DNA of 64,000 nt, taken from the sequence record PV648359, one strand, 5' to 3'. Below the pieces are notes generated by a model. That model saw only the letters and a program-made list of their open reading frames with translations, made no database searches and was not told the origin of the DNA. The translations under genes were made by a program, and so were the position numbers. Source of the DNA: Escherichia phage LF82-1. Within the stretch, counting starts at the first letter, position 1. Each line of letters begins with the position of its first letter. Below, in pieces: positions 13,542 through 13,584 of the stretch.

Positions 13542-13568
13542 ATTCTATCATCCGAAATCTAAAGCAAA
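13542..13568 (-). promoter_or_regulatory. T4-type middle promoter (MotA box TTGCTTTA, 12-nt spacer, -10 TAGAAT) for gene 39
   Basis: Minus strand TTTTTGCTTTAgatttcggatgaTAGAAT directly after a terminator hairpin; gene 39 start about 25 nt downstream. Confidence 0.55.
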
Positions 13569-13584
13569 AAGGGCCGAAGCCCTT
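13556..13584 (-). terminator. intrinsic terminator after ORF 13583..14008, fused to gene 39 middle promoter
   Basis: AAGGGC-cgaa-GCCCTT followed by TTTTTGCTTTA, whose U-tract doubles as the MotA box. Confidence 0.55.

Follow-up and report, generated by a model that had tools for sequence, protein, structure and literature searches.

Hairpins with putative terminator U-tracts overlap MotA-type middle promoter boxes upstream of genes 39 and 47 in Escherichia phage LF82-1

We analyzed a stretch of 64,000 nucleotides from Escherichia phage LF82-1 (record PV648359), referred to here as the window, and focused on two intergenic sites, upstream of gene 39 (site 1) and gene 47 (site 2), where a candidate intrinsic terminator appears to share bases with the MotA box of a candidate middle promoter. 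The window is identical to Escherichia phage LF82-2 (PV648360.1), a Mosigvirus, and 98% identical to many Mosigvirus (RB69-like) genomes. Its gene order is that of phage T4: asiA, motA, 52, rIIB, rIIA, 39, goF, uvsX, 43, regA, 45, 46, 47, 55. The features all lie on the minus strand, the strand that encodes all neighbouring genes. The two sites comprise the following features.

13583..14008, minus strand: open reading frame (ORF) upstream of site 1, 141 amino acids, stop codon TAA at 13585-13583
13584-13569, minus strand: site 1 hairpin AAGGGC-TTCG-GCCCTT, GC core at 13571-13582, predicted intrinsic terminator or attenuator for upstream transcripts
13560..13570, minus strand: site 1 TTTTTGCTTTA, bases shared by the U-tract and the MotA box
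13550-13542, minus strand: site 1 extended -10, TGA+TAGAAT, with the hexamer TAGAAT at 13547-13542
11702..13519, minus strand: gene 39 (DNA topoisomerase II large subunit), Shine-Dalgarno (SD) sequence GAGGAG at 13530-13525, ATG at 13519
47314..47487, minus strand: ORF upstream of site 2, a-gt.2 homolog (DUF5486), 57 amino acids, stop codon TAG at 47316-47314
47315-47296, minus strand: site 2 hairpin AGGAACTC-TTCG-GAGTTCCT, predicted intrinsic terminator
47285..47296, minus strand: site 2 TTTTTTGCTTTA, U-tract and MotA box combined
47276-47268, minus strand: site 2 extended -10, TGA+TAGAAT, with the hexamer TAGAAT at 47273-47268
46225..47244, minus strand: gene 47 (SbcD-like recombination endonuclease subunit), SD sequence GAGGAA at 47255-47250, ATG at 47244

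At site 1 the T-run TTTTT (13570-13566) leaves the hairpin and enters the MotA box TTTTGCTTTA (13569-13560), which has the (a/t)3TGCTTTA form and is separated from the -10 by the 12-nt spacer GATTTCGGATGA. Site 2 has the T-run TTTTTT (47296-47291), the same box TTTTGCTTTA (47294-47285) and the 11-nt spacer TAAACGGATGA. Placed in the register of T4 P39, the predicted +1 of site 1 is A 13535, and the predicted +1 of site 2 is A 47261. The stop codons of both upstream ORFs overlap the 5' arms of the hairpins; the ORF upstream of site 1 has no Pfam match. The stems of the two cassettes differ, and what the sites have in common are stretches of 11 nt, TTTTTGCTTTA, and 13 nt, CGGATGATAGAAT, the latter including the TGn of the extended -10. 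A preliminary description of this DNA had placed a hairpin, a T-run, GCTTTA, an 11-12-nt spacer and TAGAAT before genes 39 and 47; we recovered every one of these elements at both positions on the minus strand, and the two downstream genes are indeed 39 and 47. The shared 13-mer, the overlaps between stop codons and hairpins, and a third overlap upstream of gene 43 (see below) were missing from that description.

Middle promoters of T4 have a MotA box, (a/t)(a/t)(a/t)TGCTTtA, near -30 and 12 +/- 1 bp before a TAnnnT -10, and about half of them have TGn (PMC2988021). Both sites agree with this consensus in the box, the spacing (12 and 11 nt) and the -10. Activation of such promoters proceeds by sigma appropriation, in which MotA acts with AsiA-remodelled sigma-70 (PMC2988021), and homologs of both proteins are encoded in the window.

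2158..2790, minus strand: motA homolog, 210 amino acids, 51% identical to T4 MotA; MotA_activ 133.8 bits and MotCF 34.6 bits, both above the Pfam cut-offs; trans-acting activator
24..296, minus strand: asiA homolog, 90 amino acids, 75% identical to T4 AsiA; 114.2 bits, above the Pfam cut-off; co-activator and anti-sigma factor

The match to the consensus and the presence of MotA and AsiA support the assignment of both sites to the MotA-dependent class, as had been proposed. A sigma-70 scan returned no promoter at either site, and by eye the best -35 window has 2/6 matches; a sigma-70 early promoter at the sites was ruled out by this absence of a -35 match.

Both sites have orthologs among the mapped middle promoters of T4. 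Upstream of T4 gene 39 we found AAGGCC-TTCG-GGCCTT, TAGCTTTA, 12 nt and TATAAT, and upstream of T4 47.1/47 we found AGGGC-TTCG-GCCCT, TTAGCTTTA, 12 nt and TATAAT. Seven nucleotides past these -10 hexamers lie positions 5349 and 36576, exactly the published starts of P39 and P47; PmobB is mapped to 38682 (Table 1 of Hinton 2010, PMC2988021, citing Guild et al. 1988 and Hsu & Karam 1990). P39 and P47 resemble the window sites in their downstream genes, in a C(TTCG)G hairpin that directly follows a stop codon and abuts the box, and in the GCTTTA box, the 12-nt spacer, the TAnnnT -10 and the distance to the SD sequence and ATG, which is equal. They differ in their stem sequences, in the TATAAT -10 and in having TTTAGCTTTA, with an A before GCTT and only three Ts, which makes a poorer U-tract. 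Inspection of all 58 listed T4 middle promoters also showed that the box of PmobB is preceded by a TTCG hairpin at a distance of 2-3 nt; PmobB aligns with the left half of site 2, that is, with the a-gt.2 end, the hairpin and TTGCTTTATAAA. Several other T4 middle promoters (P55, P55.8(2), PmobC, PnrdD+ and P46i(2)) are kept nearly base for base in the window. In the literature we found no usable genome-wide T4 data on 3' ends or transcription start sites near P39 or P47.

The agreement with RB69 is closer: no base differs over 96 nt at site 1 and a single one at site 2, where the -10 is TAAAAT in RB69 versus TAGAAT in the window. Additional files 4 and 6 of Nolan et al. 2006 (PMC1524935) list for RB69 the predicted promoter Pm:5538 (5498-5538, minus strand) and a TransTerm terminator at 5535-5546 ('60plus39<--RB69ORF005c', 4-bp stem, score 100), as well as the predicted promoter Pm:40046 (40007-40046, '1 bp del') and a terminator at 40044-40061 ('47<--a-gt.2', 7-bp stem, score 100). 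At both places the tabulated coordinates of promoter and terminator overlap by 3-4 nt. The two kinds of element are tabled separately in that paper, as predictions, and the passages of it that were searched carry no remark on shared bases. In the Mosigvirus record ATK48 the gene-39 hairpin is annotated as a terminator.

To follow the arrangement across phages, relatives of gp39 and gp47 were collected from IMG/VR and their upstream DNA was read. A hairpin, a T-run, GCT(T/A)T, a gap of about 12 nt and TAnnnT occur in this order in 45 of the 80 distinct gene 39/47 upstream regions. The 45 regions use 17 distinct stems, closed by the loops TTCG, TTAG, TACG, TCCG, TAAC, CTAGT and GTA, and belong to Escherichia phages, to the Acinetobacter phages Acj61 and ZZ1/Henu6-like, and to Enterobacter/Kosakonia-type phages. 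More distant relatives, among them metagenome contigs with sigma-70-like promoters, lack the module. Stem pairing was counted in 14 tetraloop hairpins, taken as loop-anchored 20-mers because a MAFFT alignment of the full cassettes gapped the stems and was unsuitable for the purpose. In this set 93.8% of cells are paired, and both sides have changed in 7 of 8 pairs; covariation scores 0.651 versus 0.246 after shuffling, a value that none of 500 shuffles equalled and that collapses on sliding the partner.

The bases shared by T-run and box show a constraint of their own. In 16 representative composites, T makes up 85% and A 6% of the five nucleotides before GCT, as compared to 42% T and 37% A in 47 T4 middle promoters without an abutting hairpin (Fisher P = 5e-12). 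Since the MotA box accepts A at these positions and a terminator would not, the nearly exclusive use of T points to selection on the shared bases as a U-tract as well as a MotA box. The double use of the same bases, the central claim of the preliminary description, is thus favored by both the stem covariation and the T-only stretch, which argue for selection on the two functions.

Matches to the elements exceed what chance would give in the window. The 11-mer TTTTTGCTTTA occurs twice in the 64 kb, at these sites only, where 0.19 copies are expected. There are 13 matches to TGCTTNA-N11-13-TANNNT versus 3.3 expected, 10 of them on the minus strand, which also carries 10 terminator-like hairpins. 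Hairpins followed within 9 nt by GCTTNA-N10-14-TAnnnT number two, as against 0.009-0.034 by chance (P = 4e-5 to 6e-4).

Both hairpins were flagged by a terminator scan and are present in minimum-energy folds, with energies of -8.8 kcal/mol (site 1) and -11.2 kcal/mol (site 2). Their U-tracts, T5 and T6, are followed by GCTTT. On a d'Aubenton-Carafa-type score d (d'Aubenton-Carafa 1990), calculated with ViennaRNA energies, site 1 scores +4.0, which is marginal, and site 2 scores +16.2, with tail scores of 4.26 and 4.76; two plain TTCG terminators of the window score +15 and +37. These values, together with the TransTerm scores of the RB69 counterparts, fit the terminator character given to both hairpins in the preliminary description. 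According to PMC2988022, T4 terminators consist of a GC stem, a loop of 4 nt and poly(U); T4 mRNA is also where the UUCG tetraloop was originally detected, as an exceptionally stable structure (PMC4371310). A scan of the whole window with Rfam at gathering thresholds returned no family, which places the hairpins outside any curated RNA family. On the same strand, T4-type early promoter matches lie upstream of site 1 at about 15466 and 17003 and upstream of site 2 at about 50467, and a P55 ortholog is also upstream of site 2; transcripts should therefore run into both hairpins.

Several points weigh against a combined terminator and promoter at these sites. The stem that the terminator score rates as marginal, that of site 1, consists of only a 4-bp GC core and two A-U pairs. 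The T4 orthologs keep the hairpin with the poor U-tract TTTAGCTTTA, and P39, P47 and PmobB have negative scores (-20, -21 and -33). The Mosigvirus cassettes are thus predicted to be better terminators than those of T4, and because of the T4 hairpins the conserved role of the structure may not be termination everywhere; to terminate efficiently may be a property of certain lineages. The transcript ends in this phage and in RB69 are predictions from sequence, not mapped ends. The covariation alignment was anchored by hand on the loop, in sequences chosen for having a hairpin, and so leans towards structure. On the promoter side, the extended -10 could permit some MotA-independent initiation.

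Composite cassettes of this general kind are known in T4-like phages. Arbiol et al. 2010 (PMC2839356) defined composite terminator/promoter cassettes, called PeSLs, and Comeau, Arbiol & Krisch 2014 (PMC4122927) described a Mot-box form, the PmSLs, having TGCTT as the Mot box together with a -10, which was reported in Vibrio phage nt-1. The PeSL stem-loop was proposed to terminate upstream transcription, and this was shown for one PeSL with a lacZ reporter (PMC2839356; PMC4122927). The sites in the window resemble PmSLs in that a stem-loop lies directly upstream of a Mot box and a -10, followed by an SD sequence and ATG, all within one intergenic gap. PeSLs are highly repeated and have been described mainly in hyperplastic regions, whereas the 64-kb window has two such cassettes (and a P43-type variant), both directly before the core genes 39 and 47, though their upstream neighbours vary. 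The terminator and promoter arrangement at the two sites is therefore already known and ordinary for the T4 family.

How much of this could have another cause differs between the parts. That a hairpin and promoter-like words came together by accident in AT-rich DNA is next to impossible: T-rich words are indeed frequent at ~37% GC, and two copies of the 11-mer were reached in 1 of 100 shuffles, but the two composites have the low probability given above and occupy orthologous positions kept across genera, so that conservation already refutes this explanation. Promoters that fire without MotA are a different matter, since extended -10 promoters (TGnTAnnnT) can function without -35 contacts. TGA directly precedes TAGAAT at both sites, which could make GCTTTA incidental to two sigma-70 promoters. 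We nevertheless regard MotA independence as very improbable. The T4 orthologs are among the identified middle promoters, a class defined by MotA/AsiA activation, and T4 P39 has no TGn; GCT(T/A)T is kept at fixed spacing across genera where the sequence of the spacer is not; and the window encodes MotA and AsiA.

It is also quite unlikely, in our view, that the hairpin serves mainly in RNA stability or processing, as a barrier to exonucleases at the 3' end of the upstream message, and adjoins a promoter only through the tiny intergenic space. The exceptional stability for which UUCG hairpins were first noticed in T4 mRNA (PMC4371310) speaks for such a role, as do the weak U-tracts and negative scores of the T4 orthologs, and the stem covariation reflects selection for pairing rather than for termination as such. 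Yet in 16 lineages the bases from the stem to GCT are almost exclusively T where A would suit the MotA box just as well; a terminator needs this T-only run and a stability hairpin does not, and the scores are 100 in RB69 with TransTerm and positive at both window sites. Improbable, too, is the idea that the cassettes are kept chiefly as recombination linkers of the PeSL/PmSL type for swapping gene cassettes, with regulation secondary. In its favor, Comeau et al. 2014 and Arbiol et al. 2010 place composite elements, Mot-box versions included, beside indels, and the ORF upstream of the gene-39 cassette differs among lineages. The T4 gene-47 locus fits as well: there two hairpin-Pm cassettes, PmobB and P47, flank mobB, a-gt and 47.1, whereas the window and RB69 have one, between a-gt.2 and gene 47. 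The two cassettes of one genome moreover have extra sequence in common. However, this similarity is absent in JS98-like genomes and in genomes of the L024/L078 type, cassettes with diverged stems and spacers are found at the starts of the same core genes in distant genera, as fits vertical descent under regulatory selection, and mobB, a homing endonuclease, offers another route for insertion. Recombination and regulatory roles are in any case not exclusive.

We consider it likely that both sites combine a terminator with a middle promoter, as supported by the comparison across phages, with termination itself predicted. We infer termination, its efficiency and MotA dependence in this phage from the features described above. 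In the RNA, a very stable C(UUCG)G hairpin would fold immediately behind the stop codon that ends the preceding gene, and the 5-6 U's behind it would make an intrinsic terminator or attenuator, stopping or thinning the transcripts that arrive from upstream early and middle promoters; their 3' ends are expected within UUUUUGCUU, at 6-10 nt past the hairpins. At the DNA level, this T-run would serve as the (a/t)3 portion, which is only loosely specified, of the MotA box TTTTGCTTTA. MotA would bind this box, centred near -30, and AsiA-remodelled sigma-70 would engage the extended -10 (TGaTAGAAT) 11-12 bp downstream of it. With A 13535 and A 47261 as the new start points, about 7 nt past the -10, the transcripts would have short leaders with the SD sequence of gene 39 or 47. 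The terminator may also shield the promoter from polymerases coming from upstream. As an outcome, upstream read-through would be kept out of these replication and recombination genes, which would come under middle-mode control, and a reset of transcription at the early-to-middle switch, as suggested in the preliminary description, is a reasonable inference.

That the overlap does more than save space seems unlikely, though two such functions can be imagined. MotA/AsiA-RNA polymerase bound on the box could act as a roadblock and raise termination at a modest U-tract; if so, early read-through would be shut off only once middle mode begins, as a self-timed switch. Alternatively, hairpin-plus-Mot-box cassettes could be recombination joints for the insertion of gene cassettes beside core replication genes, as with mobB and a-gt of T4.

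The discovery value of the two sites is small, given their T4 counterparts (P39 and P47/PmobB), the RB69 elements predicted in 2006 and the composite design already named PmSL. In the literature examined we did not find base sharing between U-tract and box stated explicitly, nor the T-only constraint, nor how widely the arrangement is conserved before genes 39 and 47; such points refine what is known and are not new biology. For annotation, the analysis provides promoter, terminator and likely start coordinates for two essential genes in Mosigvirus therapeutic and model phages, and the comparative result may aid the design of experiments on the insulation of early and middle transcription units in T4-like phages.

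A third overlap of hairpin and promoter, in another register, lies at 40651-40681 (minus strand) in the regA-43 intergenic region. The hairpin AATGGGAC-TTCG-GTCCCATT (40681-40662) directly follows the regA stop codon and is itself followed by TGGAG and TATAAT (40656-40651). Its T4 ortholog is the mapped promoter P43 (+1 at 29933), where a TTCG hairpin likewise overlaps the promoter after the regA stop. Unlike at sites 1 and 2, the hairpin here occupies the position of the MotA box, with GCTTCG (T4) or ACTTCG (window) spanning the junction of stem and loop; the -10 comes 5 nt after the stem and there is no real U-tract.

Other TTCG-loop hairpins of terminator type stand alone. On the minus strand of the window these are GGGGAC-TTCG-GTCCCC+T7 at 7074-7089 and AAGGAATCC-TTCG-GGATTCCTT+T4 at 23034-23055, neither of which has a MotA box or -10 after it; fusion to a promoter is thus seen in two of the four TTCG terminators of the window. 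Upstream of uvsX, where RB69 has an adjacent promoter/terminator pair, the window has a box and -10 at 31888-31912 with no preceding hairpin. RB69 also has the opposite order, according to the tables of PMC1524935 consulted here, with predicted promoter Pm:143278 (143239-143278) followed by a predicted terminator at 143221-143239 ('nrdA<--nrdA.2').

Within a genome the two cassettes resemble each other in ways that their orthologs do not. Both window cassettes (13542-13570 and 47268-47296) have TTTTTGCTTTA and CGGATGATAGAAT, and both T4 cassettes (2357-2384 in sequence L002 and 1584-1611 in L006) have CTTTAGCTTTAT and TATAAT. Gene conversion or a lineage-specific MotA preference could account for this likeness. 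Concerted evolution of the cassettes within a genome was considered, being suggestive in the window and T4, and was not adopted, as the pattern is absent in JS98-like and other genomes.

The surroundings of the cassettes vary as well. The ORF upstream of site 1 is unrelated to T4 39.1, and the next genes, 39.2 and goF, are conserved, so that the gene-39 cassette marks a boundary between replaced and conserved DNA. A comparison of T4 36560-38765 (L007) with window 47236-47345 looks like an insertion with cassette duplication, which fits PeSL/PmSL shuffling or mobB homing. In T4, the start codon annotated for 47.1 (36584) falls within the -10 hexamer of P47 and upstream of the mapped start at 36576 (L006 1577-1590, corresponding to NC_000866 36576-36589), which means that the N-terminus annotated for gp47.1 cannot be encoded by P47 transcripts.

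Two arrangements among the relatives involve the hairpin more deeply. In Enterobacter/Kosakonia-type phages (L020-L022), ~30-50 nt upstream of the gene-39 -10, the upstream ORF appears to enter the hairpin GGAGC-CTAGT-GCTCC, with its TAG stop codon in the loop, a tighter packing than in the window. Upstream of gene 47 in Acinetobacter phage Acj61 (L090), the hairpin GGATGC-TTTA-GCATCC precedes TTTTGTGG and TATAAT; the last part of its 5' arm and its loop are made up of the box-like ATGCTTTA, so that here, too, a word resembling the Mot box is part of a hairpin.

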